A stretch of 64,000 bases of DNA from Candidatus Bathyarchaeia archaeon (GCA_049513715.1 JBEKVV010000006.1:32001-96000), one strand, 5' to 3'. Numbered from the stretch's first letter, positions 300-50,570 are shown. The notes: generated by a model from the letters alone, not told the origin. Translations and numbers: made by a program.

Positions 300-447
300 C
301 TATGTTGCACGCCCTGAAAGGTAGGTTTCCAGAACCACAAACCGTACATATGAATGCTTTGCGCCCATGGCTCCCGTTAACTTGGGCAAGCTTTGGGTTC
401 TTGGCCTTGGTCTTTCGACTTTTTGATTTCCTGCCTACTTCTGCCAT
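292..447 (-). CDS. Small basic hypothetical protein (51 aa) with CxxC
   Basis: MAEVGRKSKSRKTKAKNPKLAQVNGSHGRKAFICTVCGSGNLPFRACNIDG. Overlaps both neighbours by 8-13 nt, like an operon member. Confidence 0.4.
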   Translation of the reverse strand: MAEVGRKSKSRKTKAKNPKLAQVNGSHGRKAFICTVCGSGNLPFRACNIDG

Positions 448-689
448 AGTATTCGGGGGAGAATATGGATCGCAAGAAATCCCACTGCGACGATGCCCAG
501 CATGTATCCTGCGATGAGAAGAACTGTGACGAGAACGAATAATGACATACCCGTCAGGACACCGATTTGAGTTGTGGCAATGAAGTAAAAAATCAAGAAT
601 AATGAGAGCGCAACTGCGCCAAGTAACAGCAGTACTACCGCGAAACTCTTTTCGAGTAAACCTTCAAAACGATGTGTGCTAGCGCTCTT
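435..689 (-). CDS. Small membrane protein (~84 aa, 2-3 TM), start codon uncertain
   Basis: Open frame 701-435 directly after the TAG of the upstream gene: ..SASTHRFEGLLEKSFAVVLLLLGAVALSLFLIFYFIATTQIGVLTGMSLFVLVTVLLIAGYMLGIVAVGFLAIHILPRILWQK. No ATG/GTG/TTG before TM1; AAG at 689 follows SD-like GGATGTTGA. Confidence 0.6.
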   Translation of the reverse strand, partial: KSASTHRFEGLLEKSFAVVLLLLGAVALSLFLIFYFIATTQIGVLTGMSLFVLVTVLLIAGYMLGIVAVGFLAIHILPRILWQK

Positions 690-701
690 GTCTTCAACAT
701 C

Positions 702-1172
702 CTACGTTTTCGCGGCGGCGGTTTCTCGGGCCAACTTTTCGCCCGGTGAGCCTTTCCATGCACGCATCGTCTGCCACAGGTTGTATGCGTGCAAGTACAA
801 GGCAATGACTTGAATCAGAAGCGAGCCGGTGGCTATGTATTTCGTGTCGGGGCTGAATGGTAGAATCCCTGAGAATGACAATGTGAGGCCGATGACTCCG
901 ATGTTCATCAACCAGAACTGTAGATTCGCCATCTTGAGGCTGTGAAGAAAGCCGTGGGCAAAGGAGGGAACGAATAGGTAGGATAAGCCGAAGACCATCA
1001 TGGCCACGAATCCGTATAGCTGCATGAAGTAGAAGGCCGTCATCTCAAAAGGCAACAAGCGAGAGAAAGAAAGAAGCATCAATGTTCCGCCGGCGACAAG
1101 GTAGAGGAGGCTTGCCTTCACGTAGCGCAGGCTCAGACGCATGACAACTGCAGTCGTGGGACCTTGGGCCAA
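702..1172 (-). CDS. Four-TM membrane protein (resembles small haem-copper-oxidase-subunit-I-like/NnrS-like repeat proteins)
   Basis: Four hydrophobic helices and the motif LYGFVAMMVFGLSYLFVP..QFWLMNIG; family assignment tentative. Confidence 0.55.
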   Translation of the reverse strand: MAQGPTTAVVMRLSLRYVKASLLYLVAGGTLMLLSFSRLLPFEMTAFYFMQLYGFVAMMVFGLSYLFVPSFAHGFLHSLKMANLQFWLMNIGVIGLTLSFSGILPFSPDTKYIATGSLLIQVIALYLHAYNLWQTMRAWKGSPGEKLARETAAAKT

Positions 1173-1335
1173 TGTGAATCATCTGTTTGGCGGAGCAGCC
1201 TTTCAGATATGTTTGTCTGCTATGTTATGACCTCAAGGCTGTACCGACAAGGCCCAGCTTGAAACATAGACGCCCCCCTCCTTGAGCAGGGAGCTTCTGG
1301 TCGATTGGTCTGATATCGTAGGGGGGGGTCAGGGC

Positions 1336-2769
1336 TCAAAATAGGGCTTGTGTGCGAAGGGCTCTCAGAGATTCCTCCACGGCAATGATTGTCTCATCAA
1401 TTTCATGTTCAGTGTGAACTGCTGAAATGGACAGTCGTTCTAACCCATCTGGATGCATGTACACGCCGTGCTTTAGCATCTCGTTCCTAAAGCGTTTGTA
1501 CTTCTCGCCGTCCGCTTGAATTGCTTGCCTGTACGTTGAGACTTTCTTTAGCCTGGTGAAGTAAATTGATAGCAAAGGACCTACAGCATTGATCACGACA
1601 TTGTAACCAGCTGCGTGGAAGGTTTCCTCTAGTCTCGTCTTGAGTTTTGAACCGAGGTCAGCCATCCGGCGAAAGGCTTCACCATCATTCGCGAGCAGGG
1701 TTTGCAAAGTAGCCTTTGAAGCAGCAAGAGACAGAGGGTGAGCATTGTATGTTCCGCCGAAGCCTATTCTGCCTGGTCCGACTTGGCTCAACAAGTCTCT
1801 CCGTCCGGCGACGGCTGCAATCGGGGCGCCTCCTCCTAGCGCCTTTGCATAGCATGCGAGGTCAGGCTTGACTCCGTAGAATTCCTGTGCGCCTCCTTTC
1901 GCGAGCCTGAAGCCGGTGAGGACCTCGTCGAAGATTAGAAGAGTATCATATTTGATGGTCAGTTCGCGCAATTGTTTGAGGTAGTCAGCATCAGGTGGGA
2001 TCACGCCCTGACTGCACATTACGGGTTCGGTTATTACGGCTGCGATGTCAGTGTTGTTCTTTTTCAGCAAACGTTCAAGGCCTGCTACGTTGTTCCATGG
2101 AGCCACAATGACGGTTTTTGCAATTTCCTCAGGGATACCTGGGAAGTACGGAAGCTTAGCTGGACTGGATTCTAGCCCCGAGACGGGTGACGGGGAGTCT
2201 ACGCTGAACAGGACGTAGTCGTGATGGCCGTGATAATGCCCTTCAAACTTAACCAGCTTGTCCTTACCAGTAACCGCTCTTGCAATGCGCAATGCTTCCA
2301 TTGTTGCCTCTGTTCCAGAATTAGCGAATGTAACCATCTCAGCGCATGGAACTATGGTCGTAATCAACTTCGCAAGCTCAATCTCGCGCTCCGTCGTGGT
2401 TCCGAACATTATTCCTTCTTGCAACTGTTCTTCAATTTCAGCAATAATCCTGGGGTGCCGGTGACCGAGAATCAAAGCCCCATAAGCCATAAGATAATCG
2501 ATGTATCTGTTCCCATCGACATCCCAAACTCTGGCTCCCTTTCCTCTACTGAAGATTATCGGGGACGGATCGTGCATATGAACTCGAACGTTCGAGGACG
2601 CGCCCGAAGGCAGATACTTCTTCGCCTCTTCGTACAGTAGCTCAGATTTTTGCGTTGAAAATGCCTTCTCGCGCACAACGTTTGCGGGGAGAAAAAGTCT
2701 GCGCTCGGTAACAGTCTTCGGCTCTTCCGGACGTACGACGACTTGAGGCACTTCTAACATCTCCTTCAC
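1336..2769 (-). CDS. Class-III PLP aminotransferase, glutamate-1-semialdehyde aminomutase-like
   Basis: WDVDGNRYIDY, NSGTEATM, KFEGHYHG, LIFDEVLTGFR, AKALGGG, GTYNAHP motifs. Confidence 0.85.
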   Translation of the reverse strand: MKEMLEVPQVVVRPEEPKTVTERRLFLPANVVREKAFSTQKSELLYEEAKKYLPSGASSNVRVHMHDPSPIIFSRGKGARVWDVDGNRYIDYLMAYGALILGHRHPRIIAEIEEQLQEGIMFGTTTEREIELAKLITTIVPCAEMVTFANSGTEATMEALRIARAVTGKDKLVKFEGHYHGHHDYVLFSVDSPSPVSGLESSPAKLPYFPGIPEEIAKTVIVAPWNNVAGLERLLKKNNTDIAAVITEPVMCSQGVIPPDADYLKQLRELTIKYDTLLIFDEVLTGFRLAKGGAQEFYGVKPDLACYAKALGGGAPIAAVAGRRDLLSQVGPGRIGFGGTYNAHPLSLAASKATLQTLLANDGEAFRRMADLGSKLKTRLEETFHAAGYNVVINAVGPLLSIYFTRLKKVSTYRQAIQADGEKYKRFRNEMLKHGVYMHPDGLERLSISAVHTEHEIDETIIAVEESLRALRTQALF

Positions 2770-3192
2770 ACCAAAGACTACCTTATCCTACCATATAGGT
2801 TAGTATTATGGTACGCTCGCTCATTTTTAGCATTTTTTAGCCTCAAAACTGCGTTTTCTGGCTCAAAAGTGTACAGCTAAAGTTGAATCCAAGAGAATTC
2901 ATGATGAAGTTGAATCTTTCGAGTGAAACTTTGACTATACAATTCAGATTGAACTGTTCGTAATTGATGGAAATCAAGTTGAACAAAAGCAGAACAAAGC
3001 ACTGTCCCCTCTGCTACAGTTCGACAGATTCGGGTGAGATCGTTCATCTTGTTTTGAGCGCTCTTCACACTCGTTATCTACCGCGCAGCCCTTCCTGACT
3101 ACGATTGCCCGTTAAAGTTCTCAACAATTGGCGCTCAGGTGGTGTGGGCCTACGTCTAGGTTGAGAAGACAGGGCTCTAGTTTGGTCTTCAA

Positions 3193-4386
3193 ATGAGAAC
3201 TCTCGTTATCGGGGCTGCGGGTCAGATAGGGGCATATACCGTTCAGGATTTGGTTGAGTTCTATAACGCGGACATCATAGCGGCCGACCGAAGGCTAGCG
3301 AACCTGAAGAAAGCCATGGTCGACTTGGAACTCGCTGACAAAATCAAAACTATGGAGCTCGAAGCCGACAACATCGACGCTGTAGCAAAGGCCGTGAAAT
3401 CAGAAGGCATCGAAACAGTCGTAAACTGCGCTTGGTACCAAACAAACCTGTCCGTCATGGAGGCATGTCTACGAGCTGGCGCCCATTACACTGACCTAGG
3501 CGGTCTCTTCGACACAACCCTGAAACAACTTCAGCTTTATGAAAAGTGGAGAAAAGCGGGAATCAATGCCACCATCGGTTTAGGTAGCACGCCTGGGCTT
3601 ACGAATATTGCCTCAGCAGCCGGTGCAGCAAAACTCGAGCGGGTCGACACGATCAACATTTACTGCTCGTGGGGAGACACTCTCCCAGTCAAAGAGGCAG
3701 GATGGCCTAGCTACTCAATACGGACCGTGATGGACGAATTCACCCAAGAACCGGTGATGTGGCTGGACGGGCGGCACGTAAAGCAACCCGTGCTTTCTGG
3801 TGAGACGACGGTCACCATGCAAGAGCCGGTCGGCAAAATCACAGCCTATTACGTGTAACATTCCGAACCTGCAACCTTGGGGAAATATGTCGGTAAGGGC
3901 TGCCGAAACGTAACATTCCGAATAGGGTTCCCAAGCACCGACTTCGCCACCTTCAAGACCCTCAAGAACCTAGGCTTCGCAGAAACCGAAGGAGTCCAAG
4001 TGGGCGGCATTCAGGTTTCGCCCCTCGATTATCTGACGGCGATGTATCAACGAGCCAGCGCAAAATCGAGGCAAGACGCTCCGCGACGCGAAGAATACGA
4101 ATACGACGCGTTCAAGATTGATGTTTTTGGAACTCGCGGAGGTTCTCCTACAACAGTTACGTACCACATAATCACTTGGAACGATCCCCGGAGAGGAATA
4201 CCTTCAGCACGAGACACATCAGTACCACCTGCGGTGGTCACACAATGGCAGGCGACTGGGAAAATCAAGGAATCAGGAGTATTTCCCGCTGAAGCCACAG
4301 TTAACCCTGAACCGTTCTTCATGGAGATGGGAAAGAGGAAAATCAGGGTAGAGGAACACTTCACGGAAACAAAGAAGTTCTACTGA
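3193..4386 (+). pseudogene. Saccharopine dehydrogenase/lysine-6-dehydrogenase-like oxidoreductase interrupted by one in-frame TAA (3856-3858)
   Basis: Rossmann start LVIGAAGQIG, HYTDLGG, GLGSTPGLTN. ORFs 3193-3858 and 3877-4386 are in the same frame: AYYV*HSEPATLG; C-terminus GVFPAE. Confidence 0.75.
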
Positions 4387-4555
4387 GCAGTAGACGCGTG
4401 AACGTACCCTAGATAGCGTCGATATCGGCGATATACCATATATAGACGCCTTGGAAGCGCGGGAGCTTGATAATTAAGTTCTCACGGTTTGTCGACTCGC
4501 CTGAAAACTGTTAAAGGCCAGATACCAACAATCATGCTCAACTGGAAGGCCTCAA

Positions 4556-6424
4556 ATGCGAGTCAAGTTTCGTTTGAGCCGTGCAGCCATCGGAAGAACC
4601 CAAGGCATTGTAATTATCTTGGTGCTGTTGGTTGCTATCGCCGGAGCCGCTTACTTCTATTCCACAAGCAAGATTTCAACAGGAGGGACAACTTCAACCG
4701 GTCAAACCCCCACGTCGCTGGTGGTGGAAGAGGAAAGTCAACCAGATTCAATGGACCCAGCAGTTTCATACACAACGCCTGGCTGGGAAATTGTTGAGCA
4801 AGTCTATCAAGGACTCGTAGCTCCAGATGGCACGAGCTACAACACTTACATCGGGGTTCTCGCGCGAGACTGGACAGTTTCCTCAGACGCAATGACTTAC
4901 ACATTTACATTGAGGTCAGGCGTGACGTTCAGCAATGGGGATCCATTCAACGCGTATGTAATGTGGTTCTCAATTTACAGGGCTCTCTTGATGAATCAAG
5001 AGCCCTCTTGGATTCTCGGTCAAAATTTGGCCCACGGAAACGGTGCAGACTTCAACATAACCGACAATATACTCAACTCCATAGACTACGCGAATCCATC
5101 TTCCCAAGACTTGGCCTATATGACTGCGTCGAATCAATCCGTGCAAGCTAGCGCGCCAAATCAACTGATAATACATCTTGGCTACGGTTACAATGGGATG
5201 GCTCCTTACTCCGCATTTCTAGCCACTCTTAGTACACCCATAGCCATGGCCATTGACCCACAGGTTATGAAGGCAAATGGCGGAGTGCTTGCAGACGAGC
5301 GGAACAATTGGATGGAAACTCACGCAATTGGCACCAGCTTCTTTGAACTGCAATCGTGGATTCAAGGACAGAGCATAACGCTGATTAGAAATCAGAATTA
5401 CTGGGGGGCGAATGTTCCAGTAGCTGAGCGCAACTATGCGATACAACCCGCTATCCTTGACACAGTAAACTTCTACTACAAACCCACGTCCACAATGATT
5501 GCTGATTTGAAGGCTAACACTGCTCAGATCATCCTTCCGCCTTCATCACAGTATGGCGCTCTGAAACAAACACAAGGTGTTAGCGTGTCAATTCTGCCGA
5601 CGGCATTCGGGTCATCACAGAGCATCGTCTTCGTATACATGGACCCCTATGCCTTTCCGCCTTTTCAAGACCGCCGGGTCAGACAAGCAATTTCCTACGC
5701 GATTGACTACAAATCCATAATTCACACAGTCTTCAATGACTTGGCAACTCAATGGATAGGCCCTGTTCCACCAGGCTTCCCTTACTACAATGAATCGATA
5801 CAGGGGCTGCAACCCTACCAGTTTGATCCCGTCAAAGCTGCCACCTTACTCTCTGAAGCCGGTTACAAATCCACTCTTCCAGATGGCACTGTGATGAATG
5901 CAGCCGGCAAAGTTTTCCCATCGGTTAACTTCCTCTACGACGCAGATTCATCCACTCAATCACAGGTTGCTGAAATCATATCAACTGAACTGCATTCGAT
6001 CGGCGTCAACATTGCGCTTACGCCTCTCACATTCAAGCAGTATGCAAACGTTGTAAGCTCCTCTAGCGACGTGAACAGCACCACCTACCCATTTGGCATA
6101 AGTTACTATAGTGAAGACTACACCGCGAGCATAGATTACGTTTCGGCTGAAACCCAGACAGGACAGATAGGATTCTCAGCGTTTTACAACCAGACTGTCT
6201 ACGACTGGACGACTGCAGCGGCCACGGCTCTCGACGAGAACACTATAATCGAAAACTTCCGCCTGATCACTGGAGCCATGTATTACGACTACACCGACAT
6301 ATGGCTGTACGTGCCTTACTTCATAGCAGCGAACAGAAGCAACGTAGTCGGCATGGTCCCCAATCCTGCAGGTTCTGGTATGGGGTACTTCATGTTCTAC
6401 AACACCATACACTACACCTCGTAG
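4556..6424 (+). CDS. Peptide/nickel-family (SBP family 5) ABC substrate-binding protein
   Basis: N-terminal TM plus Thr/Ser linker, SMDPAVSY, LARDWTVSSD.TYTFTLRSGVTFSNGDPF, PFQDRRVRQAISYAID. Confidence 0.9.
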   Translation: MRVKFRLSRAAIGRTQGIVIILVLLVAIAGAAYFYSTSKISTGGTTSTGQTPTSLVVEEESQPDSMDPAVSYTTPGWEIVEQVYQGLVAPDGTSYNTYIGVLARDWTVSSDAMTYTFTLRSGVTFSNGDPFNAYVMWFSIYRALLMNQEPSWILGQNLAHGNGADFNITDNILNSIDYANPSSQDLAYMTASNQSVQASAPNQLIIHLGYGYNGMAPYSAFLATLSTPIAMAIDPQVMKANGGVLADERNNWMETHAIGTSFFELQSWIQGQSITLIRNQNYWGANVPVAERNYAIQPAILDTVNFYYKPTSTMIADLKANTAQIILPPSSQYGALKQTQGVSVSILPTAFGSSQSIVFVYMDPYAFPPFQDRRVRQAISYAIDYKSIIHTVFNDLATQWIGPVPPGFPYYNESIQGLQPYQFDPVKAATLLSEAGYKSTLPDGTVMNAAGKVFPSVNFLYDADSSTQSQVAEIISTELHSIGVNIALTPLTFKQYANVVSSSSDVNSTTYPFGISYYSEDYTASIDYVSAETQTGQIGFSAFYNQTVYDWTTAAATALDENTIIENFRLITGAMYYDYTDIWLYVPYFIAANRSNVVGMVPNPAGSGMGYFMFYNTIHYTS

Positions 6425-6434
6425 ATGAGAGCTC

Positions 6435-7481
6435 CTGGTTTACCTCAAGGACTTTCTATCACTTCTTGCAAAACGAATAGTGGGATCAATAGGAGTTTCG
6501 CTCGGAACAATTACAATAATTTTCTTCATCTCACACGTGCTCAGCCCAAACCCAGCTCGCCTTTGGGCTGGACCTAGGGCAAAGGCTTCAACCGTCATTG
6601 CCGTTGCAGCGAGGTACCACTTGAACGACCCGCTCTATACTCAATTCTACTATTTCTTGCGTGATCTCCTGACCGGGAATTTCGGAATCGATCCATTAAG
6701 TGGCCAGCCGATTCTGTCTGAGATAGTCTTCTACCTTCCAAACACACTTGAGCTGGTACTGGTTTCGTTCGTGATCCTGATAATCGTTGGAATTGGTTTG
6801 GGATACCTGTCTGGGATGCGCTTTAGCACTACTGCCGATTCCATAATCAGAGTCATTTATCTGACGTCGTGGTCGACTCCAATGTATTTCGCGGCAATTC
6901 TTGCAATCTTGGTTTTCGCAACTTACATTCCCCTCTTTCCGTCTGGTGGGATGTATTCGCTGTCTCTCACACCAGTCCACCCTATAACCGGGATCTATAT
7001 CGTAGATTCTCTTCTACAACTAAATATGCCTGCTCTGTTATCTGGCCTTCAGCATCTCGTGCTGCCGGCTGCGGTGCTTGCTTTTGTGAACTTCGGTTTG
7101 ATATCGAGAGCAGTGCGATCTTCTATACTGAATGTGAGATGGTCAACGCATGTGAAAACTGCACGAGCAAAAGGGTTGAGTGAAGCCGAAGTTAAGCGAA
7201 AACACATTCTCAGGAATGCATTGATTGACGCCACAAGTCTAAGCGCCGTTTTGTTTGGGTGGCTCTTGACGGGAACCGTTGTTGTAGAGGAGCTGTTCGC
7301 ATGGCCCGGATTGGGGCAGTTTGCCTACCAAGCTATTTACGCCAACGATTACCCGGTTCTAATCCCGATAGTTGTGGTATTTACACTCGGAGTGATCGTG
7401 GCCAATTTTGCCGCGGATGTACTCTACTCACTGCTCGATCCAAGGATAGCAATGGGTGCTCAAAGTGGCGCAGTCGCTTAA
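6435..7481 (+). CDS. Peptide ABC permease DppB/OppB-like
   Basis: NTLELV, TARAKGL (EAA loop), VVEELFAWPGLG, DVLYSLLDPRI. Frame extends upstream of the 6480 GTG (LVYLKDFLSLLAKRI); CTG at 6435 after AGATGA is the likely start. Confidence 0.88.
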   Translation: MVYLKDFLSLLAKRIVGSIGVSLGTITIIFFISHVLSPNPARLWAGPRAKASTVIAVAARYHLNDPLYTQFYYFLRDLLTGNFGIDPLSGQPILSEIVFYLPNTLELVLVSFVILIIVGIGLGYLSGMRFSTTADSIIRVIYLTSWSTPMYFAAILAILVFATYIPLFPSGGMYSLSLTPVHPITGIYIVDSLLQLNMPALLSGLQHLVLPAAVLAFVNFGLISRAVRSSILNVRWSTHVKTARAKGLSEAEVKRKHILRNALIDATSLSAVLFGWLLTGTVVVEELFAWPGLGQFAYQAIYANDYPVLIPIVVVFTLGVIVANFAADVLYSLLDPRIAMGAQSGAVA

Positions 7482-8403
7482 GTTCAGGCAATTAATTCTT
7501 TCGAACAGTCTATCAACGCTAGGTCTGGTCATCGTAATCATATCGGTCACATTTGCCGTGCTATTCAGTGTTTTTGGTAGAGGAATCACACCTTACGACC
7601 CGTATGCCCTCAACCTCCAACAATCCAATCTACCCCCAAACGCGTCCCATTTCTTTGGCACGGACTTTCAAGGTAGAGACATATTTTCCAGAGTAATCGC
7701 AGCCCTGCCGGTCGACCTCGGCATACCGATTGCAATCGTCCTACTCTCGTCCGTGTTGGGCATATTTCTCGGGATGGCCGCTGGTTACTTAGGAGGCGCA
7801 GTCGACGAGGTCATCATGAGAGTTACGGACCTGTTCATGGCTTTTCCAACCATAATAATGGTACTGGCTGTCGCGGCGACACTTGGTTCGGGCCTCGTGA
7901 ATGCCACGCTGTCATTCGTGTTCGTTTGGTGGCCCCCCTACGTCAGATTAGTTAGAGGTGGCGTGCTCGAGGTAGCTGCCGAAGATTACATCGCCATCTC
8001 GAAAGCATTGAATTCATCTTTTCCCTACATAATGGTGAAAGGCATTCTTCCAAACATCCTGCCGGCAGTCCTGACCTACGCAACTCTTGATGTCGGAACC
8101 GCACTTCTTGAAGTCTCTATCCTTGGCTTCCTCGGTGTTGGAATTCCGCCCGGGACTCCTGAGCTCGGTGTGATGGTGGGGTCAATCAGCTACAATTTGT
8201 ATAGTTACCCATGGGAGGCTATATTTCCAGCCTTGGTGACAATGGTTCTTGCAGTTGGTTTCAGTTTCATGGGAGAGGGCGCAAGAGAAGCTTCTGACGT
8301 GAAGGTTAGGCCCTACATTCTCTTTAGAGGTAAAGCGTTCAAACAGAAGGCGAAAGCACCCCAAAAAGAGCCGATATCAGTTACCCAGCCGGGTGCGACC
8401 TGA
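7456..8403 (+). CDS. Peptide ABC permease DppC/OppC-like
   Basis: HFFGTDFQGRDIFSR, IMRVTDLFMAFP, LGFLGVG. Confidence 0.88.
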   Translation: MLKVAQSLKFRQLILSNSLSTLGLVIVIISVTFAVLFSVFGRGITPYDPYALNLQQSNLPPNASHFFGTDFQGRDIFSRVIAALPVDLGIPIAIVLLSSVLGIFLGMAAGYLGGAVDEVIMRVTDLFMAFPTIIMVLAVAATLGSGLVNATLSFVFVWWPPYVRLVRGGVLEVAAEDYIAISKALNSSFPYIMVKGILPNILPAVLTYATLDVGTALLEVSILGFLGVGIPPGTPELGVMVGSISYNLYSYPWEAIFPALVTMVLAVGFSFMGEGAREASDVKVRPYILFRGKAFKQKAKAPQKEPISVTQPGAT

Positions 8404-9382
8404 GTTGCTCTTTCCGCGTTCCATTTCCGTCATATAGATGGCACGCGGCAAATCGGTCTGAACCTAGGCTAAACATCGGTGGGGGATTCACGCATTTTTC
8501 GAACGCCTCGGGACAAACTTTGCTGTATATGCAGCCAGTTGGCGCTGGCCCCTGTTCACTCAAAACCTCCTGCTTGCGTTCAGCTCGCTTGAGGTTCGGA
8601 ACATTCGCCATCAGTTTCTTTGTATACGGGTGCTTAGGATTCGTGACTACATCAACGGTTTTTCCCACTTCGACAAGTTTTCCGTAGTAGAGGATTCCGA
8701 GCGAGTTGCTCATGTACTTGATGACATTGATATCGTGAGTGATGAACAAGAAAGAGAGCTGCAACTCTGACTTCAATTTACGGAGTGTGTTCAAGACTTG
8801 GGCTTGGATCGACACGTCCAATGAACTTGTGGGTTCGTCAAGCACCAGCAATTTTCTCGGTACGACAAGCGCTCTTGCAAGGCTCACTCTCTGCTTCTCA
8901 CCGCCGCTAAGCTCTCTCGGATAGGCCTCGATACTGCTCTTCCTCAAGCCAACGATCTCGATCATTGTCTCTATTCTGCTGCCGAAGTCTCTTCTCGCAA
9001 AAGCTTTCGAGGCTAGTAGAGCTTCAGCGAATATCTCTCGAACCTTCGAACGTGGGTTCAAAGAACCAACTGGATCCTGGAAAACTATTCCGACGTTGCG
9101 TCTCAGATAGGCTATGTCTTCCTTTCTTCGGAAGTTTATTTCTTTGCCCAGCAGCTTGATGGATCCCGACCTGGGCCGGTATAGGCCAACTAGGACTCTG
9201 GCTATCGTCGATTTGCCGGAACCAGTCTCCCCGGCTAACCCGAAACTCTCTCCTTCCCTAACACGGAAAGAGGCATTGTCAACAGCGTTTATCATTCTCG
9301 AACCCCTCTCGAATAAGAAAGAGCCTCCTCCCCTTGCTCTAAAGGTAACAGTGAGGTTATCCGCTTCAACGATGTTGCTCAT
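8381..9382 (-). CDS. Peptide ABC ATPase DppF/OppF-like
   Basis: GETGSGKST, LSGGEKQR, LDEPTSSLD, HPYT, Cys-containing C-terminus; ATG at 9382 couples to the upstream TGA. Confidence 0.9.
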   Translation of the reverse strand: MSNIVEADNLTVTFRARGGGSFLFERGSRMINAVDNASFRVREGESFGLAGETGSGKSTIARVLVGLYRPRSGSIKLLGKEINFRRKEDIAYLRRNVGIVFQDPVGSLNPRSKVREIFAEALLASKAFARRDFGSRIETMIEIVGLRKSSIEAYPRELSGGEKQRVSLARALVVPRKLLVLDEPTSSLDVSIQAQVLNTLRKLKSELQLSFLFITHDINVIKYMSNSLGILYYGKLVEVGKTVDVVTNPKHPYTKKLMANVPNLKRAERKQEVLSEQGPAPTGCIYSKVCPEAFEKCVNPPPMFSLGSDRFAACHLYDGNGTRKEQLRSHPAG

Positions 9383-10380
9383 TTCTTTTCTACCAGCCAA
9401 CATGAAACCCGGCGACCGTCAGCAAGCTCAAGAGGGGGCGGTTCATTCTGCGCACATTTGTCCATCACAAATGGGCACCTAGGGTGGAATTTGCAGCCGG
9501 TTGGTAATCTTCTGAGATCTGGAGCCTCACCAGTAGGGGCAGGTAGCGGTGGGGAATCAATGAAACCTTGCGGAATCGCAGCCATGAGTTTCTGGGTGTA
9601 GGGATGTATGGGGGCATTGATCACGTCCTCAGATTTTCCCTCTTCCATCAGCCTGCCCGCATACATGACGTACAACTTGTCACAAATCTGTGAGGCAACT
9701 GTCAAGTCATGCGTGATGAGTATCATAGTTGTTCCTGTTCGGCGATTCAAGTCCTTGAGTATATTCAACATCCTGTTCTGAATGTAAACATCAAGTCCAG
9801 TGGTTACCTCATCCAATATCAGCAGTCTTGGCTTCTCTACTATGGCCATTGCTATCGATATGCGCTGTCTCATTCCGCCCGACAGTTCGTGAGGATACTT
9901 CCTCAGGACAACTTCTGGTTTGTCAAGGCGCAAATCTTTGAGAATCTCAATCATCATGTTGGCTTCAGTGCTTGGAGTGAGATCCAACTTCTGGGCCTTT
10001 CGTAGAACTTCTATCGACTCTCGGAGTTGTGCTTCAGTCTTGTAAACAGGGTTCAGCGCTGCGAGAGATTCTTGGAATACCATGCCAATTCCGGTCCCTC
10101 TAAATCGTGATATTTCAACGGGATTCATTTTGCGCATATCATGCCCTTCGAAAACTATGGAGCCATCAATGATATCTGCGGGCGGGGAGTCCAATAGACC
10201 GATTATCGCTAGCCCAAGCGTCGTCTTCCCTGAGCCGCTCTCGCCAACAACACCGATTATCTCTCCTTTCTTTACTCTCAACGCGACATTCTCTAGGACA
10301 CGCACCCTACCATCGACAGTCGCGTAATCCATTGTGAGGCCGTCAACATTCAGAAGCTCATCATCGGTAGTGCTAGACGA
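9379..10380 (-). CDS. Peptide ABC ATPase DppD/OppD-like
   Basis: GESGSGKTT, YPHELSGGMRQR, GCKFHPRCP. Frame extends upstream of ATG 10332 to SSSTTDDELLNVDGLT; start is non-canonical (TCG 10380 or CTG 10353). Confidence 0.88.
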   Translation of the reverse strand, partial: SSSTTDDELLNVDGLTMDYATVDGRVRVLENVALRVKKGEIIGVVGESGSGKTTLGLAIIGLLDSPPADIIDGSIVFEGHDMRKMNPVEISRFRGTGIGMVFQESLAALNPVYKTEAQLRESIEVLRKAQKLDLTPSTEANMMIEILKDLRLDKPEVVLRKYPHELSGGMRQRISIAMAIVEKPRLLILDEVTTGLDVYIQNRMLNILKDLNRRTGTTMILITHDLTVASQICDKLYVMYAGRLMEEGKSEDVINAPIHPYTQKLMAAIPQGFIDSPPLPAPTGEAPDLRRLPTGCKFHPRCPFVMDKCAQNEPPPLELADGRRVSCWLVEKK

Positions 10381-10669
10381 TTACATCAACTCCGATGGGA
10401 TTGCATTATGCCGACTCTACCAACATTGTAGTCTGCTGCGAGAAAGGGAAAGCCAGGAGCAGTGCGAGAGGGAAAACGGTGAGCGGTGTCCAAAAGAATG
10501 CTTTCTGAGAATATCAACGGTTAACTTCCGAAAAGTTCTCTGCCAAAACAGTTCCTTGCCTGTACTGGTTGCTCGTTCACAATTAAGTTCTTTTGATGCG
10601 CGTCCTTTTCAGTTCCCTCTGGAAAGGGGTTTAATTGGGTTATTAGTATAACCGGCAAGTGCTACGTTC

Positions 10670-11968
10670 TTGTCTGAGACTACTGAAGTTGTTGAGACGT
10701 ACAAAAAGCACGTAATAACTAACTGTGTGAGCAAGCTTGAACCTGTTGTGGTCAGCAGAGCCAGTGGAGCCACGATTACTGACACGGAAGGGAAAGAGTA
10801 CGTAGACTGTTTCTCTGGAATTTCAGTTGTAAATACAGGGCACAGCAATCCGAAAGTCATCGAGGCCGCGAAGAAGCAACTTGACAACTACACCCACGCA
10901 TGTGCTTACGTATACTACTCGGAACCTGTTGCGAAACTCGCGGAAAAACTCGCGAGGATAGCTCCTTCTGGACTCCAGAAGACTTTCTTCTCAAACAGCG
11001 GCGCGGAAGCAGTTGAATGTGGTCTGAAGCTTGCTAGGAAGTTCACCAAGAAGCACGAGATAATTGCGTTAATGCGTTCATTTCATGGCCGGACACTTGG
11101 GACGCTGAGTGTAACTGGGCAGGCTGGGAGAAGAAGCTACTCGATGGGGCCCTACCTAGGGTCAATCGCCTTTGCCCCGACACCCTACTGTTACCGATGC
11201 CCGCTCGGTCTCGAGTTTCCAAAATGCGGGATCGAATGCGCTAAAATGATTGAAGATGTGGTGCGATACGCTACCTCGGGCGACGTCGCAGCATTCATCG
11301 CTGAGCCGATTCTTGGGGAGGGCGGCATAATCGTGCCCCCAGAAGACTACTTCAAGGAAGCCAAGAAAATTCTCGACAAGTACGGGATCCTATTCATAGC
11401 CGACGAGGTTCAGACAGGTTTTGCGAGGACCGGCAAACTATTCGGGATCGAACACTACAACGTGATCCCTGACATCATGTGTTTTGCCAAAGCAATCGCA
11501 AACGGGCTACCCCTTGGCGCATGCACAGCTCGAACGGACATAGCCGACTCATTCCAGCCTGGTGACCACCTCTCCACTTTCGGCGGAAACCCAGTATGCT
11601 GCGCGGCTGCGTTGGCGAACATTGAATTCATTCAGGAAGAAGACCTGCCCAAACGAGCAACGGAAAGTGGACGATACGTGATGCACAGACTAGAGGAATT
11701 GAAGAGCAAACACAAGCTCATCGGCGACGTGAGAGGAAAGGGGCTGATGATAGGGCTTGAACTTGTGAAGAATCGGGAAAGCAAAGATCCAGCGTCCTCT
11801 GAAACCGCAAAGGTCAGAGCCTTGTGCAGGGACAAAGGCGTGTTGATTGGAAGCGGCGGAGTTCTCGGTAACGTACTGCGGATTCAGCCACCTTTGGTCA
11901 TCTCACAGAGCCAGCTCGACATTGCGATTGATGCTGTTGATCAATCGCTCAAAGAAGTGGAAGCATGA
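10670..11968 (+). CDS. Class-III aminotransferase (4-aminobutyrate/beta-alanine/omega-amino acid type)
   Basis: SNSGAEAVE, SFHGRT, IADEVQTGFARTG, AKAIANG, STFGGNP. Confidence 0.88.
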   Translation: MSETTEVVETYKKHVITNCVSKLEPVVVSRASGATITDTEGKEYVDCFSGISVVNTGHSNPKVIEAAKKQLDNYTHACAYVYYSEPVAKLAEKLARIAPSGLQKTFFSNSGAEAVECGLKLARKFTKKHEIIALMRSFHGRTLGTLSVTGQAGRRSYSMGPYLGSIAFAPTPYCYRCPLGLEFPKCGIECAKMIEDVVRYATSGDVAAFIAEPILGEGGIIVPPEDYFKEAKKILDKYGILFIADEVQTGFARTGKLFGIEHYNVIPDIMCFAKAIANGLPLGACTARTDIADSFQPGDHLSTFGGNPVCCAAALANIEFIQEEDLPKRATESGRYVMHRLEELKSKHKLIGDVRGKGLMIGLELVKNRESKDPASSETAKVRALCRDKGVLIGSGGVLGNVLRIQPPLVISQSQLDIAIDAVDQSLKEVEA

Positions 11969-13446
11969 CCCTTCTCTCCGAAATCGCCTACAAACCCAAC
12001 GCCCTGCAACTACTAATAGACAGCCAGTGGCGACCATCCAAGTCTCAAGAACTCCTACCTGTAATTAATCCCGCAACGGGTAAGCGAATAACCACCGTAC
12101 CCATGGCTCTTAAGGAAGAGGTGGATGAAGCGGTTACCTCTTCACAGAACGCTTTCGAGAAATGGAAAGAGGTCCCGCTGCCTGAAAGAGTACAATACCT
12201 GTTCAGGATGAAGAATGTTCTCGAGGAACACTTGGAGGACCTCGCCAGGATCAACACGCAGAACCATGGCAAGACAGTGTCCGAGAGCAGGGGAGATGTC
12301 AGACGAGCGGTCGACAACGTCGACGCCGCCATAGGTGCAGCCTACACGCTCATGAAAGGTGAGCACTTAGACCAGATCGCCGCTGGAATCGATGAGGGAA
12401 CCGTCAAGGAACCGTTAGGCGTCTTCGGCATAATCTGCCCGTTTAATTTTCCAATAATGATCCCCTTCTGGTTCCTCCCATACGCAATTGTCGCCGGATG
12501 TTCCGTGGTCATAAAACCCAGCGAGGTCACGCCCCTACCCTTCACGTACACAGCGGAGCTAATTCAGAGAGAAGTCAAGCTTCCCCCTGGCGTCATGAAC
12601 CTCGTTCATGGCGCCAAAGAAACAGTCGAGGCCCTGATCTCGCATCCACTCGTCAAGGGCGTTACGTTCGTCGGGTCAACTCCGGTCGGAAAGCAAGTCT
12701 ACAAACTTGCCGGGGATCACGGTAAACGTGCTATCGTTCAAGCTGGCGCGAAGAACGCCATTCTAGTCATGCCAGACGCTAATCTGCCAGACACCGTTGA
12801 ATCCTGCGTTTCATCCTTCTTCGGGAATGCTGGGCAACGATGCCTTGCCGGAGCGAACTTGTTGGTGGCAAGCGAAATTCGAAAAGACCTGCTGAAAAAG
12901 TTCGCCAACCGGTCAGAGACATTGAGGCTCGGCTATGGGTTAGATGAGTCAGCGGAAATTGGACCAATGGTCTCGCAAAACGCGAAGCAACGAGTCCTGA
13001 AATACATAGACAAAGGCAAGTCAGAGGGAGCACAATTGATTCTTGACGGAAGCAGCGCTCATGCGAAAGGATACGAAGACGGTTACTTCCTCGGGGCTAC
13101 AATCTTCGACGGAGTCGAGCAGGACTTTACGATTGCCAAGGAGGAGATCTTCGGCCCAGTCGCTGCCGTCAAAGAAGTGGCCGACATGGACGAAGCGATC
13201 GAGATCATCAACAACGGAACCAACTACGGCAATGCAGCAAGCGTTTTCACGCAAAACGGCAAGAATGCAAGAGAGTTCCGCCGTCGAGCTCGGGCTGGAA
13301 ACGTAGGCATAAACGTAGGCGTAGTTGCACCGATGGCGTTCTTCCCGTTCGGGGGAATGCGGGACTCATTCTACGGAATCCTACACGGCCAAATAGGCTC
13401 AATGGATTTCTTCACAGACAATAAAGTAATCATAACCAGATGGTGA
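11965..13446 (+). CDS. CoA-acylating (methyl)malonate-semialdehyde dehydrogenase (MmsA/IolA-like)
   Basis: CPFNFP, FVGSTPVG, GAKN, GNAGQRCLA, EEIFGPV, GNVGINVGVVAPMAFFPFGG; ATGA coupling to the aminotransferase. Confidence 0.85.
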   Translation: MTLLSEIAYKPNALQLLIDSQWRPSKSQELLPVINPATGKRITTVPMALKEEVDEAVTSSQNAFEKWKEVPLPERVQYLFRMKNVLEEHLEDLARINTQNHGKTVSESRGDVRRAVDNVDAAIGAAYTLMKGEHLDQIAAGIDEGTVKEPLGVFGIICPFNFPIMIPFWFLPYAIVAGCSVVIKPSEVTPLPFTYTAELIQREVKLPPGVMNLVHGAKETVEALISHPLVKGVTFVGSTPVGKQVYKLAGDHGKRAIVQAGAKNAILVMPDANLPDTVESCVSSFFGNAGQRCLAGANLLVASEIRKDLLKKFANRSETLRLGYGLDESAEIGPMVSQNAKQRVLKYIDKGKSEGAQLILDGSSAHAKGYEDGYFLGATIFDGVEQDFTIAKEEIFGPVAAVKEVADMDEAIEIINNGTNYGNAASVFTQNGKNAREFRRRARAGNVGINVGVVAPMAFFPFGGMRDSFYGILHGQIGSMDFFTDNKVIITRW

Positions 13447-13509
13447 ACCCAACCGCAGCCTAGTATCGAAAACTGATGCCTCCTGACTGCCAGAACAGCC
13501 CGTGTGTTC

Positions 13510-14313
13510 CTAGCCTTGAGTATTGGCCGTCGGAGATGATTGAGTTGTGACTCGAAAATCAACGACTTCTTTGTCTTTCTCAGGCAGTTCATACCATCGA
13601 ACCTTCTCACCAACACGTGCTCTGAGTTTCCAGCGAGTCGTCTTGGGCACGCTCTCGATACGGTCCCGCAGATCTTGAACATGCTTCTGCACAATATCCT
13701 GATACTCCGCATCTAGGCTGTAATTCGGCAATGCAGTCAGGACGTTCGCCAGGTTGATCGTGAAAGTCTTGTAAACACCCCATTCTTCCGCGCAGAGTTG
13801 CGCAAGGTATCGGCCGTTTATGGTTTCTTGGCCGTCAGAATCACCCACATCATGATCGTGGAGTAGAGATATCGTGTCTCTGTACTCACGTTCTGTGATT
13901 TCTACAACCTGCAACTTGGTTGCAATTAAGTCCGCTAGGGGGATCGTAGGTTTGTTCACCGAGAGGCGGTCTTTCAAATCAAACTTGTGGCACATTTCAA
14001 AAACATCTAGGAAGATGTCGATCCGTCTCCCGTTCTCGATATCGTTGAAAACCAGTCTCGTGTCGCCATGCAAAGCGTTGAAGATATCGCGCGGAGTATA
14101 ACCCAGATCTATGAATAGTTTCTTCATGCCCCGACCTTGCTTTCGAAGGCCCATGAAATCAATGTCCGCGTACTTCCGCGCTAGAAGCCTATGAGTGGCG
14201 CTCGGGCAGTGAAATCGCACCGCTATTCCACCGAACAGTCGAAGTGTTATCTGATTCTTCTCCGCGGTGTCAACAATTCGTTGTGCTTCTTGGACTATGT
14301 CTGAAAGCGGCGT
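13510..14313 (-). CDS. Uncharacterised Pol-beta-fold nucleotidyltransferase-like protein, copy 1
   Basis: Frame extends upstream of GTG 14220: PLSDIVQEAQRIVDTAEKNQITLRLFGGIAVRFHC...YADIDF...RRIDIFLD (GG..A, DxD, third Asp). Paralogue of 44988-45770; probable ACG start at 14313. Confidence 0.75.
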   Translation of the reverse strand, partial: TPLSDIVQEAQRIVDTAEKNQITLRLFGGIAVRFHCPSATHRLLARKYADIDFMGLRKQGRGMKKLFIDLGYTPRDIFNALHGDTRLVFNDIENGRRIDIFLDVFEMCHKFDLKDRLSVNKPTIPLADLIATKLQVVEITEREYRDTISLLHDHDVGDSDGQETINGRYLAQLCAEEWGVYKTFTINLANVLTALPNYSLDAEYQDIVQKHVQDLRDRIESVPKTTRWKLRARVGEKVRWYELPEKDKEVVDFRVTTQSSPTANTQG

Positions 14314-14455
14314 TAGGATCGCCCTCTATGATTTGAACTGATTGCGGAGACTTAATTGGTTTAGGATTTGACGCATGTAAAGACTATAGAGTAAGGAGGA
14401 AGGCTACGCGGCGGTGAAGCAACCACTTAAATGGCGAAAAAGCAGAAGTCATGGC

Positions 14456-15412
14456 ATGGCATTTACACGGATTTTCTTTACCTCTGATATTCACGGTTCC
14501 GAAGTCGGTTTCATGAAGTTCGTTAATGCCGCGAAGGTCTACAAGGCGAACGCGCTCATATTGGGCGGGGATATAACCGGAAAAATGATAGTCCCCATAG
14601 TCGAACAACCCGATGGAACCTTCGCTGCCACCTTTCTAGGCAACTCACAAATCATGAAGACGCATGAAGAGCGTGATGCACTGGAGAAGAACATACGACA
14701 TAGCGGTTACTACCCATACCGGACCACGCCGGCTGAAGTGGAGAAGCTTCAGGCCGACAAGAAAACTGTAGACGAACTGTTCTCCAAAATAATGGTGGAC
14801 GGAATCAGGCGGTGGGTTTCCATCGCGGAAGAGCGACTCAAAGGGTCGGAAGCTAAGTGCTACATCAGCCCCGGGAATGATGACCGATTTGATATCGACG
14901 AGGTTCTGAAGTCTTCGTCGGTGGTTCAGTGTCCTGAGGATGAAGTGGTCTGGGTTGATGACCACCACGAAATGATCACCAGCGGGTGGACCAATGCTTC
15001 TCCCTGGAATAGCCCACGCGAAACCACTGAAGAGAAGCTAACGGAGATTTTCGATCGTATGATTTCCAAGGTTCAGCGAATGGAGAACTGTATCTTCAAC
15101 CTCCATTCTCCACCATTTGACACTCCCCTGGATTTGGCGCCGGAACTCGACAAGACTCTGAAACCCATCGTTCGCAGCGGCGGGGAAGTTAGTATGATTC
15201 ATGTTGGGAGCAAAGCGGTAAGGCAGGTAATTGAAAAACACAAACCTTTCTTGGGGTTGCACGGACACATTCATGAGGCACGTGGTTTCGCCAAAATTGG
15301 CCGAACTCTATGTATAAACCCGGGCAGCGAATACGGCGAAGGAATATTGCGCGGAGCGCTACTGAATATCGATGAAAAAGGCTTGAAGAGCTATCTGCTA
15401 ACACAAGGATAG
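14456..15412 (+). CDS. Icc-related metallophosphoesterase, copy 1
   Basis: SDIHG, GGDITG, PGNDD, HSPP, GHIHE, INPGS motifs. Confidence 0.85.
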   Translation: MAFTRIFFTSDIHGSEVGFMKFVNAAKVYKANALILGGDITGKMIVPIVEQPDGTFAATFLGNSQIMKTHEERDALEKNIRHSGYYPYRTTPAEVEKLQADKKTVDELFSKIMVDGIRRWVSIAEERLKGSEAKCYISPGNDDRFDIDEVLKSSSVVQCPEDEVVWVDDHHEMITSGWTNASPWNSPRETTEEKLTEIFDRMISKVQRMENCIFNLHSPPFDTPLDLAPELDKTLKPIVRSGGEVSMIHVGSKAVRQVIEKHKPFLGLHGHIHEARGFAKIGRTLCINPGSEYGEGILRGALLNIDEKGLKSYLLTQG

Positions 15413-35493: not shown

Positions 35494-36414
35494 TTGCGCA
35501 TGTACGAGCAATCTTTCGTTCAGGACTGGAACCCGGTTACCCTGTCTTGGGACTCGTTGGACCCGACGGGTTTGGATTTGAAGGAACGGGTTGCTCAGGC
35601 TTATTGGATGGCGAAGCTCGCATTATTCGAAAAATCCGGCATTGGAGCCTTCGGCACAGCTATGCTGAAAGCAGCCATGTATGACATGGAGGACCCAACC
35701 AAGAAATTCCTAGCCGCCGTAACCTTCGACGAATGCAGGCACGACGAAGTCTGCCGCAGAGCATGCAACAAACTCTGCCCCAACTTCCCCTACAAATACA
35801 ATCCCACAACCAACTTCGAAAAAAGGGCGCTGAAGAACATTCAAGCCCTGTATGAAAATGGGAAACGCTACTGGAAAGGCTTCATGATGGCCTGGGACAA
35901 ATATCCTCTGGAACTGATCTTCTCAAGCTTCTTCTTCGCCGAAATCGGGGCACAATTAATCTTCAACACCGTAAGCGATCTATCAAACATTAAACTCTAC
36001 AAAGAAGCGTTTCAAAACGTCACAATCGACGAATCCCGCCACCTAGCAGGAACCATGTCTCTGCTCGATAATCTCGTGAGAGATTTCCCAGCTGAACAGA
36101 AACTAATGATAACCCGCCAGATGAAACACGGCTTCATCTTCCTCTCACCCCTACTCTACAAACCCATGTCGATATTCTGGCAACTACCAAAAGACTTTGA
36201 ACAAATCGACCGAGAAATGGAAGAAGTGGCACGCAACTCGGGCCTAGGCGTCCCCACCATGGACGAAAAGTCGAAGGGCTGGTTGAAAGCAATAGAGCGA
36301 CGAAGGGAACAGATCGAAAAACTAGGCGTCCTGATTCCAGCTATTCACGAAATCAACTTGGAAGGAGAAGAAGTGGACATTAGAAAAGACGAACCAGTGG
36401 CTACACCATTCTAG
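35494..36414 (+). CDS. Ferritin-like di-iron carboxylate protein
   Basis: Paired E...DECRH and E...DESRH motifs. Confidence 0.7.
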   Translation: MRMYEQSFVQDWNPVTLSWDSLDPTGLDLKERVAQAYWMAKLALFEKSGIGAFGTAMLKAAMYDMEDPTKKFLAAVTFDECRHDEVCRRACNKLCPNFPYKYNPTTNFEKRALKNIQALYENGKRYWKGFMMAWDKYPLELIFSSFFFAEIGAQLIFNTVSDLSNIKLYKEAFQNVTIDESRHLAGTMSLLDNLVRDFPAEQKLMITRQMKHGFIFLSPLLYKPMSIFWQLPKDFEQIDREMEEVARNSGLGVPTMDEKSKGWLKAIERRREQIEKLGVLIPAIHEINLEGEEVDIRKDEPVATPF

Positions 36415-43226: not shown

Positions 43227-43228
43227 AT

Positions 43229-49663: not shown

Positions 49664-49699
49664 GTTGAACAGGAGCCTTTAGAGCAAGATGCCGATGAA

Positions 49700-49852
49700 T
49701 TGGGCAGGTCAACATTGCTGCCGGGAGAATTCTGTGGGTTCTGTGGGCGCGCACTAGAAGCTCCTTTGAAGACATGCAAGAACTGTGCCAATACGATGTG
49801 CGAGCTTTGCATCGTGGAGCACGAAAGAACATGCCTCGCCAAGCAGAGCTAG
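49700..49852 (+). CDS. Small Cys-rich zinc-finger-like protein
   Basis: FCGFCG...TCKNCANTMCELCIVEHERTC; below the ORF-track cutoff; start uncertain. Confidence 0.6.
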   Translation: MGRSTLLPGEFCGFCGRALEAPLKTCKNCANTMCELCIVEHERTCLAKQS

Positions 49853-49916
49853 TTCTTATGCCTGAATAGAAATCGAATGCGGTTGGGCTTCGTTCGGGTT
49901 CTTAATGCACGAGAAG

Positions 49917-49936
49917 TATATAACGAACGTTATATA
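49917..49936. promoter_or_regulatory. Palindromic operator, copy B (TetR autoregulation candidate)
   Basis: Perfect TATATAACG-AA-CGTTATATA about 40 nt upstream of the TetR gene. Confidence 0.75.
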
Positions 49937-49976
49937 GAACGCCATTCCAGAAAACGAAACGTCGAGTTGACCACTC

Positions 49977-50570
49977 ACGACTCCAAACGAATCCTCTGAG
50001 CAACACATACTCGAAGTCGCGAAAGCATTGTTCACGGAACGCGGCTTTGCTAATGTGTCAGTTCGCGATATCTGTCGCAAAGCGCGCGTGACGGCCCCAA
50101 CAGTCTACTATCATTTCAAAAACAAGGAAGGCCTGTTCGACGCGGTGGTTCGCGAAACAGTAACCATGGCCGAATTCACTTCTGAATTAGAGCAGGAGTG
50201 CGGAAAGGCATTGCACTCCACTGACAAGATTAAGGCTTTCACCGAGATGTATCTGTCTTCGTTTCCTATCAAGCTGATAAACACCGGCCTCTACCTCAAA
50301 GGCTCAACTGCGCTTGACGCTGTGGGCGCAAGTACGCTGATGTCCGAGTTCGCGCGCATACAATCAATTCTCGTTCAGATAATCCGCTCAGGGATTGCGT
50401 CTGGGGAACTCAGGAAGACTGACGCTAATATGGCGTCCGAATGCTTACTTGGAATGATGCATAGGTTCGTGTTTCAGCGAATCCACTTCCAACGTGGTTA
50501 CAACCCATCAGAAGCGGCCTCCTACTTGTCTGAGTTCTTCTTGAAGGCCATGAAACGGGCAGAGAGTTGA
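49977..50570 (+). CDS. TetR/AcrR family regulator
   Basis: EQHILEVAKALFTERGF...VRDIC...PTVYYHFKNKEGLF; helix 1 lies upstream of the TTG at 50028; probable ACG start at 49977. Confidence 0.88.
   Translation, partial: TTPNESSEQHILEVAKALFTERGFANVSVRDICRKARVTAPTVYYHFKNKEGLFDAVVRETVTMAEFTSELEQECGKALHSTDKIKAFTEMYLSSFPIKLINTGLYLKGSTALDAVGASTLMSEFARIQSILVQIIRSGIASGELRKTDANMASECLLGMMHRFVFQRIHFQRGYNPSEAASYLSEFFLKAMKRAES

Follow-up and report, generated by a model that had tools for sequence, protein, structure and literature searches.

Within a 64,000-nucleotide stretch of DNA from a Candidatus Bathyarchaeia archaeon (GCA_049513715.1, JBEKVV010000006.1:32001-96000; hereafter the window), four genes seem to require an N-terminus that lies between an in-frame stop codon and the first ATG, GTG or TTG (collectively NTG), which raises the question of where their translation begins. 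A preliminary description of the window had proposed that these genes start at non-NTG codons positioned behind a Shine-Dalgarno (SD) sequence, namely ACG 49977 in a TetR-family gene, ACG 14313 in a nucleotidyltransferase-like gene, TCG 10380 in the gene of the ABC ATPase DppD, and AAG 689 in a membrane open reading frame (ORF), with CTG as a likely start of dppB (6435) and of an SDR gene (29330). The four codons, the motifs in front of them and the in-frame stops are all present in the window, and in each of the four genes sequence conserved among orthologues precedes the first in-frame ATG, GTG or TTG. We consider it probable that, in the genus of this archaeon, a minority of genes start at the near-cognate codons CUG, ACG and occasionally AUC located behind an SD sequence, and that the window contains three such starts (ACG 14313, ACG 49977 and CTG 6435); this explanation includes the assignment of TCG 10380 to a DppD gene with a nonsense mutation at codon 2 and leaves AAG 689 of the membrane ORF unassigned.

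The window belongs to a genome (G000) of 11 contigs with a total length of 2.79 Mb, for which a set of 22 congeners was available; the titles of related records are those of Bathyarchaeia or Bathyarchaeota metagenome-assembled genomes (MAGs) from peat and soil. G000 is itself a MAG, and errors of assembly or consensus could have created false non-NTG codons. The read data argue against this explanation. Logan contigs of four runs (depth 14-50) compared over window positions 400-14500 (14.1 kb) revealed no other letters, and no gaps on the long pieces. In addition, 24 peat and wetland metagenome runs, dated 2017-2020, contain 100% of the sampled 31-mers of window 5000-14900. Because the contigs of the four runs agree with the assembly, consensus errors are excluded at the sites 689, 10380 and 14313; the compared stretch ends before the TetR site at 49977. 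Since the source sample is possibly among these runs and all could stem from one campaign, they serve chiefly to exclude consensus errors. Identical codons also occur in assemblies made independently for other species. An assembly artifact is thus extremely improbable. Over window 5000-14900 the population looks very clonal, or else the runs represent closely related samples.

The SD system of this archaeon was characterized at its canonical starts. The 16S rRNA of G000 ends in ..GGATCACCTCCT, and the region 4-9 nt upstream of NTG starts (distances taken from the A of GGTGA) shows a peak of exact matches of at least six nucleotides to AGGAGGTGATCC. Homology-anchored NTG starts (n=248) comprise 135 ATG, 95 TTG and 18 GTG codons, and an exact SD match of at least five nucleotides is found at a distance of 5-7 nt in 41 of them (16.5%), compared with 97 of 4385 internal codons. 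Only a minority of genes thus rely on an SD sequence, whose spacing is well defined. Two of the canonical examples previously cited for this spacing, GGTGA-N6-ATG at 40602 and at 61735, are present; serS and the gene at 19012 are absent from our scan, which had an ORF limit of 80 amino acids and was bounded by the window edge. By plain arithmetic, an SD 5-mer with up to one mismatch at any of three allowed spacings is expected by chance at about 1 codon in 20. The motifs in front of TCG 10380 and AAG 689 are look-alikes with one or two mismatches.

The nucleotidyltransferase-like gene offers a well-supported case among the proposed starts. Its coding sequence runs on the minus strand from ACG (14311..14313) over 267 amino acids (13510..14313) and shows a match to Pfam NTP_transf_5 that falls below the cut-off (E=0.0017); this sub-threshold match is the only Pfam evidence for the assigned function, and the neighbouring genes gave no Pfam match. 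The sequence context reads TAG AGG GCG ATC CTA ACG, with the in-frame TAG at 14326-14328, five codons upstream of ACG. An SD-like element, GAGGGCGATCC (14316..14326, minus strand), includes GATCC, an exact 5-mer match to the SD consensus, and is located 5 nt before ACG; the site was also picked up by a scan that makes no use of homology. The first NTG, GTG 14220, lies 31 codons past ACG and within the conserved G-G strand (..RLFGGIAV..), so that the interval between the stop and the conserved N-terminus has no canonical start.

A comparison of 14 loci from the genus agrees with this assignment. Four of them (G000, G022, G013 and G014) display an in-frame stop at most five codons before ACG and no NTG, and G021 carries ATG at exactly the codon of the window's ACG with the same GGTGA-N7 spacing. 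Six further loci have GTG or ATG a few codons upstream, and the threonine codon then varies (ACG in two, ACA in one, ACT in three); G004 differs. Two paralogous loci in the species collection read GGTGAG..ACG behind TAA, without any NTG. The proposal of ACG 14313 as the start codon is well supported by these sequence comparisons. The family itself is strongly expanded: G000 alone has 12 matches, and the 23 genomes together have at least about 190.

The start of dppB, which encodes an ABC permease, is equally well supported by sequence comparison. The putative initiation codon CTG (6435..6437, plus strand) occurs in the arrangement TAGATGA-N6-CTG and opens a coding sequence (6435..7481, plus strand) with the Pfam domain BPD_transp_1. 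An in-frame TGA is located at 6426-6428, and the first NTG is GTG 6480. CTG occupies the same codon in nine of 11 genus loci, eight of which also have the TGA two codons upstream, and GTG is found nearby in the remaining two; the N-terminal residues VYLKDFL are kept in all 11. The CTG suggested for dppB is accordingly borne out by the comparison. The CTG 29330 suggested for the SDR gene was rejected as unneeded, given that ATG 29312 with GAGG upstream is adequate.

The TetR-family gene is a less clear case. Its coding sequence from ACG (49977..50570, plus strand) contains the Pfam domain TetR_N (1.1e-18), which begins at residue 13 of the frame read from 49971 and precedes the first NTG (TTG 50028) by seven codons. 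The context is TGA CCA CTC ACG, with an in-frame TGA at 49968-49970, and the likely initiation codon ACG (49977..49979, plus strand) follows an imperfect SD-like GAGTTGA (49964..49970, plus strand; one mismatch to GAGGTGA) by 6 nt. Among the 12 genus loci compared, G002 has ATG aligned with the window's ACG, immediately behind an in-frame TAG, and G011 reads AGGAGATGA-N6-ACG without any NTG; five further loci possess other N-termini with ATG or TTG starts. ACG 49977 is the best candidate for the start of this gene, with moderate support. ATA 50007 is a possible alternative.

The frequency of such starts was estimated by a comparison of G000 with 1.2 Mb (48%) of the congener G014, in which stop-to-stop frames were matched by BLASTP and shadow frames were removed to leave 877 pairs. 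At least eight conserved codons precede the first NTG in 52 frames of G000 and 42 of G014, of which seven and four, respectively, are 3' fragments of split genes. The two genomes together yield 82 distinct cases of a conserved N-terminus without ATG, GTG or TTG. In the stretches before the first NTG (1034 codons), 230, 159 and 387 differences were counted at codon positions 1, 2 and 3, against 5569, 3644 and 12985 differences in 22760 codons behind ordinary starts. These conserved stretches are largely coding, but diluted.

For the 82 cases, every exact SD match of at least five nucleotides was considered together with the triplets that start 5, 6 and 7 nt behind it, and out-of-frame triplets served as the control. 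The 21 in-frame triplets comprise eight CTG, four ACG, two TTC and one each of ATC, CAA, TTA, GTC, GAA, AGC and GGC. CTG and ACG together account for 12 of 21 triplets in frame and for none of 40 out of frame (Fisher p=1.7e-7), and near-cognate codons (CTG 8, ACG 4, ATC 1) make up 13 of the 21 in-frame codons at the canonical SD spacing; TCG, GCG, ATA and AAG are each found in none. A homology-anchored mapping with a codon tally, which the preliminary description had suggested, therefore displays an excess of CTG and ACG 5-7 nt behind the SD sequence. On sequence grounds, about 1% of genes predicted to start at near-cognate codons is a firm lower bound. If the 13 SD-anchored cases are scaled by an SD share of 16.5%, as at NTG starts, the proportion would perhaps be 4-5% of genes, the same order as 82 of 1754 frames.

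A homology-free scan of SD sites gave a similar result for CTG, which was found in frame at 12 of 277 sites in G000 (11 of 564 out of frame, p=0.04) and at 10 of 105 in G014 (1 of 203 out of frame, p=1e-4). For TCG and AAG the odds ratios were below 1 in G000 (TCG 0.67), and neither codon was found in frame in G014. Crude tallies of the codons behind GGTGA or SD 6-mers, taken over all long open frames, gave no signal; most such frames are internal or non-coding, and for this reason the homology-anchored mapping with its in-frame and out-of-frame control was adopted.

Orthologues carry ATG, GTG or TTG at the codon aligned with the near-cognate one, and the malic enzyme is one example of this alternation. 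Among its 17 orthologous loci in the genus, eight have CTG, two have CTG together with a TTG two codons upstream, six have TTG and one has ATG. Fifteen of the 17 loci, seven of the eight CTG loci among them, have an in-frame TGA two codons upstream, and an SD sequence of the type AGGAGnTGA precedes the start in most of them. The next 21 residues are conserved, and in G000 and G014 they contain no NTG. Because 19 loci from four other genera of the family all have ATG, TTG or GTG, the CTG of the malic enzyme must have arisen within the genus.

Other genes show the same pattern. In G000, a RidA-like gene reads AGGTGA-N6-ACG where 21 other loci have NTG, and no NTG occurs for 60 of its 126 codons. 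The Orc1/Cdc6 gene of G000 has GGAGGTG-N5-ATC directly behind TAA, and that of G001 has ATC without any NTG; at Orc1/Cdc6, ACG is also found in G014 where G013 has ATG, with another ATG six codons on in both. A cysteinyl-tRNA synthetase (CysRS) paralogue and an ABC ATPase of G000 both display GGAGG-N6-CTG, with ATG in G014. Essentiality cannot be argued from the CysRS paralogue because G000 has a second CysRS-like gene. ACG, CTG and ATC each differ from ATG by a single base, and TCG differs by two; AAG formally qualifies, but is otherwise unsupported.

The same comparisons bear on an explanation by start loss, according to which the starts were lost in decaying or dispensable genes, or truncated proteins are made from a downstream NTG. 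DppD speaks for such a process. On the minus strand its context is GGAG TTG ATG TAA TCG, and where the window has ATG TAA (10381..10386) the orthologues have ATG GAA TCG (G014 and G013) or TTG ACT GAA TCA (G010), with an NTG start in 11 of 11 close orthologues. The change of GAA to TAA is found only in G000, with reads that agree with the assembly. As judged from the sequence, the gene carries a nonsense mutation at codon 2 and has kept the orthologous ATG, and TCG at 10378-10380, which opens the frame behind the nonsense codon (9379..10380, minus strand), has no support as a start. The earlier TCG start was thus discarded, its motif being mismatched as well. Rescue of DppD from CTG 10351-10353 or ATG 10330-10332 is possible.

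The membrane ORF (435..689, minus strand) is a small frame of 87 codons without a canonical start, and its start may simply be missing, as the start-loss explanation would have it. Its context on the minus strand is TAG GAT GTT GAA GAC AAG, where the TAG (702-704) is that of the upstream gene, with which the ORF is in frame. AAG 687-689 is the sole single-mismatch near-cognate codon before the conserved F-x-x-L-L-E-K-S-F. In five orthologous loci, ATG or GTG is aligned with the window's AGC, three codons downstream of AAG; AAG is nowhere enriched, and its SD is a look-alike. We find no support for AAG 689 as the start of this ORF, contrary to the earlier proposal.

Besides DppD, the window contains a further nonsense mutation within 7 kb, in a saccharopine-dehydrogenase-like gene (3193-4386, plus strand), where a plain, read-supported in-frame TAA (3856-3858) stands at a position with the lysine codons AAG or AAA in G021, G022 and G018; the copy of G018 is broken too. 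This TAA adds to the case for start loss, as do the seven of 877 ORFs of G000 that are 3' fragments of split genes and the fact that T-to-C transitions offer the easiest route from ATG and TTG to ACG and CTG. Under neutral decay, however, TCG and ATA should be as frequent as CTG and ACG, since each of the four is one transition away from TTG or ATG, yet neither occurs among the 21 in-frame codons. Moreover, CTG and ACG are kept at the same codon in 8-10 species with conserved N-terminal residues, and truncation would do away with essential parts, costing the nucleotidyltransferase-like protein its G-G strand, the RidA-like protein 60 of 126 residues and the ABC ATPase 51 residues. Disabling changes that are not shared, as expected of pseudogenes, occur in DppD and the saccharopine dehydrogenase; the ACG and CTG starts are common to several species. 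As a general account start loss is unlikely, and on the present comparisons we would retain it for DppD, and possibly the membrane ORF, only.

C-to-U editing of RNA, suggested earlier as a more speculative alternative, would convert ACG to AUG and CUG to UUG so that the ribosome meets canonical starts. Plant organelles employ ACG-to-AUG editing of start codons; there, as in the present case, the genome has ACG at the required start of the protein, but the codon spectrum found here argues against editing. As editing demands, a single C-to-U change suffices to turn either of the enriched codons into a canonical start. The same activity should also act on UCG (to UUG) and GCG (to GUG), yet TCG and GCG were each found in none of 21 in-frame codons, compared with eight for CTG, and TCG is not enriched in the homology-free scan (odds ratio 0.67). 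A generic editing activity would use all of ACG, CUG, UCG and GCG, an expectation that is our own rather than a curated one and that does not agree with the tally. The ATC starts of Orc1/Cdc6 in G000 and G001 could not be edited to NTG. We know of no start-creating mRNA editing of this kind in archaea; if true, it would be the first, although the argument from the spectrum would not apply to site-specific editing that favours certain sequences. Editing is regarded as quite unlikely. A systematically relaxed start-codon selection in this lineage, with a eukaryote-like hierarchy (CUG, ACG), which may apply to up to 5% of genes, perhaps for low expression, appears more likely than editing.

Recoding was weighed as well, either by read-through of the upstream stop (TAG as pyrrolysine, or TGA) or by a frameshift from an upstream out-of-frame TTG or ATG. 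The membrane ORF is in frame with its upstream gene across a TAG, a TTG or ATG in another frame stands a few bases before the TetR gene and the membrane ORF, and aragorn called a 'tRNA-Pyl' in G000. The use of TAG as pyrrolysine was ruled out: TAG is a common terminator (875 of 2572 greedy ORFs), and the 'tRNA-Pyl' is an intron-bearing ordinary tRNA, which leaves no dedicated tRNA. The stops that precede the conserved N-termini are of all three kinds, with no start upstream of them either, and orthologues of the membrane ORF own an ATG, the ORF being situated elsewhere in some genomes. No slippery motif was seen at these sites, and any TGA that follows A, G or T itself forms an NTG. Frameshifting from the out-of-frame codon upstream (TTG for TetR, ATG for the membrane ORF) would be unparsimonious in the absence of a slippery site and was set aside, the orthologous frames having been compared for TetR only. 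Recoding is very improbable overall.

Several observations weigh against initiation at near-cognate codons. The estimated contamination of the MAG G000 is 8.8%, and gene decay is real within the window, as seen in DppD and the saccharopine dehydrogenase. Two of the 14 nucleotidyltransferase-like loci (G017 and G018) combine GGTGA-N7-ACG with an in-frame TTG farther upstream or inside the SD sequence. For TetR, the loci of G003, G005 and G009 have ACG together with in-frame ATGs one to three codons upstream and three codons downstream (the window carries AAC in place of the downstream ATG), and the SD sequence lacks an exact 5-mer and is weaker than at the other sites. In the homology-free scan, ACG was not significantly enriched in G000 (7 of 277 in frame, 10 of 564 out, p=0.31) or in G014 (5 of 105, 5 of 203, p=0.23), and reached significance only in the 6-mer set of G014 (three against none, p=0.04); the first crude tally gave ACG 10 times, compared with seven in a reversed-motif control. 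Part of the list of 82 ORFs is noise, as it may include frames that overlap upstream genes. Finally, the enrichment rests on 48% of one comparator genome, and the congeners are related, so that counts across species overstate independence.

In the mechanism that we propose for initiation at near-cognate codons, the SD sequence would pair with the 3' end of the 16S rRNA (..GGAUCACCUCCU), with the codon 5-7 nt downstream. Pairing would fix the small subunit such that a near-cognate codon sits in the P site, where the initiator Met-tRNA may read it with one mismatch: at the first position for CUG (as for the common UUG), at the second for ACG and at the third for AUC. The start codon at a given site would then drift among ATG, TTG, GTG, CTG and ACG between species. 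Presumably, Met-tRNAi decodes the near-cognate codons and the corresponding proteins are produced. In a search for tRNA genes, aragorn reported nine in G000 without and 33 with an intron search, many of them doubtful, and Rfam RF00005 gave 18; an initiator-like anticodon-stem pattern had eight matches, none with flanks judged to be tRNA-like, in a genome whose tRNA genes are rich in introns and difficult to identify. The earlier inference that initiation is set by SD position with relaxed codon checking thus holds for ACG and CTG, and once or twice for ATC, but does not extend to any codon, TCG and AAG being unenriched. Likewise, the orthologues show ACG and CTG in alternation with ATG, TTG and GTG at the near-cognate starts, whereas those of DppD all have NTG and those of the membrane ORF have ATG or GTG.

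Near-cognate initiation with Met-tRNAi is a feature of eukaryotes, where CUG is preferred, followed by ACG. The order of codons in the archaeon resembles this hierarchy; the positioning is by an SD sequence and not by scanning with Kozak context. Archaeal aIF1, aIF1A and aIF2 are described as homologues of the eukaryotic factors. In Escherichia coli, CUG, AUA, AUC and AUU initiate at 1-2% of the level of AUG, and ACG yields a Met-initiated protein (10.1101/063800). That system is alike in that an SD-led mRNA allows the initiator tRNA to start at near-cognate codons, but such starts are weak and rare in its natural genes, whereas species of the archaeal genus retain them in many native genes, implying useful expression. 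AUU starts are cited for infC and pcnB in a study of Deinococcus (PMC2830850), in which N-terminal proteomics identified ATC as the start of dnaA and CTG as that of rpsL; that study reported four genes only and did not look for ACG. The two cases have in common near-cognate starts in ordinary and essential genes, conserved N-termini before the annotated start and a failure of gene callers to detect them. They differ in that Deinococcus is a bacterium with IF3-based fidelity, whereas the present organism is an archaeon with aIF1/aIF2-type initiation, in which ACG is also used, the frequency is in the per-cent range and the starts are predicted from sequence.

For archaea, the passages retrieved from a review of initiation mention only AUG, GUG and UUG as start codons, and a term search of its text gave no match for CUG or ACG (PMC7531240). 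The genus agrees with standard archaea in its SD-led initiation and in having the same anti-SD sequence, and TTG is a frequent start in it (95 of the 248 anchored ones). Ribosome profiling (Ribo-seq) of Methanosarcina mazei assigns a predicted CTG start to 5% of the new small ORFs (PMC11456600). This was the only relevant work retrieved in a search for non-canonical or CTG starts in archaea; by title and abstract, corresponding searches found no paper on Bathyarchaeia start codons, and none on CUG or ACG in Haloferax volcanii.

Gene callers and NCBI table 11 reject ACG and rarely use CTG. For this reason, automatically annotated Bathyarchaeia genomes are expected to contain truncated, over-extended and missing genes, and the conserved N-termini found upstream of the first NTG are consistent with the truncation that the preliminary description had anticipated. 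The affected genes include core ones, such as Orc1/Cdc6, the CysRS paralogue, ABC transporters and regulators, and their mis-annotation distorts the metabolism reconstructed for Bathyarchaeia, which are abundant in peat, soils and sediments. The use of CUG and ACG at the per-cent level together with eukaryote-type factors would bear on the evolution of start stringency and on SD-guided initiation as opposed to scanning, and the occurrence of ATG, TTG, CTG and ACG at one site across species provides natural variation with which start stringency may be studied.

Two other genes of the window have unusual N-termini. In a gene of unknown function (35383-36414, plus strand), 16 of 16 residues before the first NTG (TTG 35494) are identical to those of the G014 orthologue; the region of the orthologous ATG is present but out of frame, and the upstream sequence holds neither CTG nor ACG. 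In the ferrochelatase gene (plus strand), the start chosen by the ORF finder, GTG 55143, lies inside AAGGTGA, and CTG 55152 follows this motif by 5 nt.

Outside the window, a serine hydroxymethyltransferase (glyA-like) gene on contig C7 of G000 (~59581-59613, plus strand; locus L278/L279) and its counterpart on contig C1 of G014 (~706116-706149) harbour an insert of 30-34 nt exactly between TAC GCG GAA and GGA TGG GT (RYAE|GWVGER). The insert is found in nine loci (G000, G001, G011, G013, G014, G016, G020, G021 and, from another genus, G056), and another 20 loci of the family have an uninterrupted junction. The lengths are not all multiples of three, that of G014 shifting the frame, and the inserts start with TAG in nearly every locus. 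The geometry fits a bulge-helix-bulge motif with 3-nt bulges, a central 4-bp helix GCGG/CCGU, for which G056 has the compensatory GCAG/CUGC, and an inner hairpin with a covarying stem. The glyA insert is thus a candidate for an endonuclease-spliced intron in an archaeal protein-coding mRNA other than that of cbf5 (PMC2738675).

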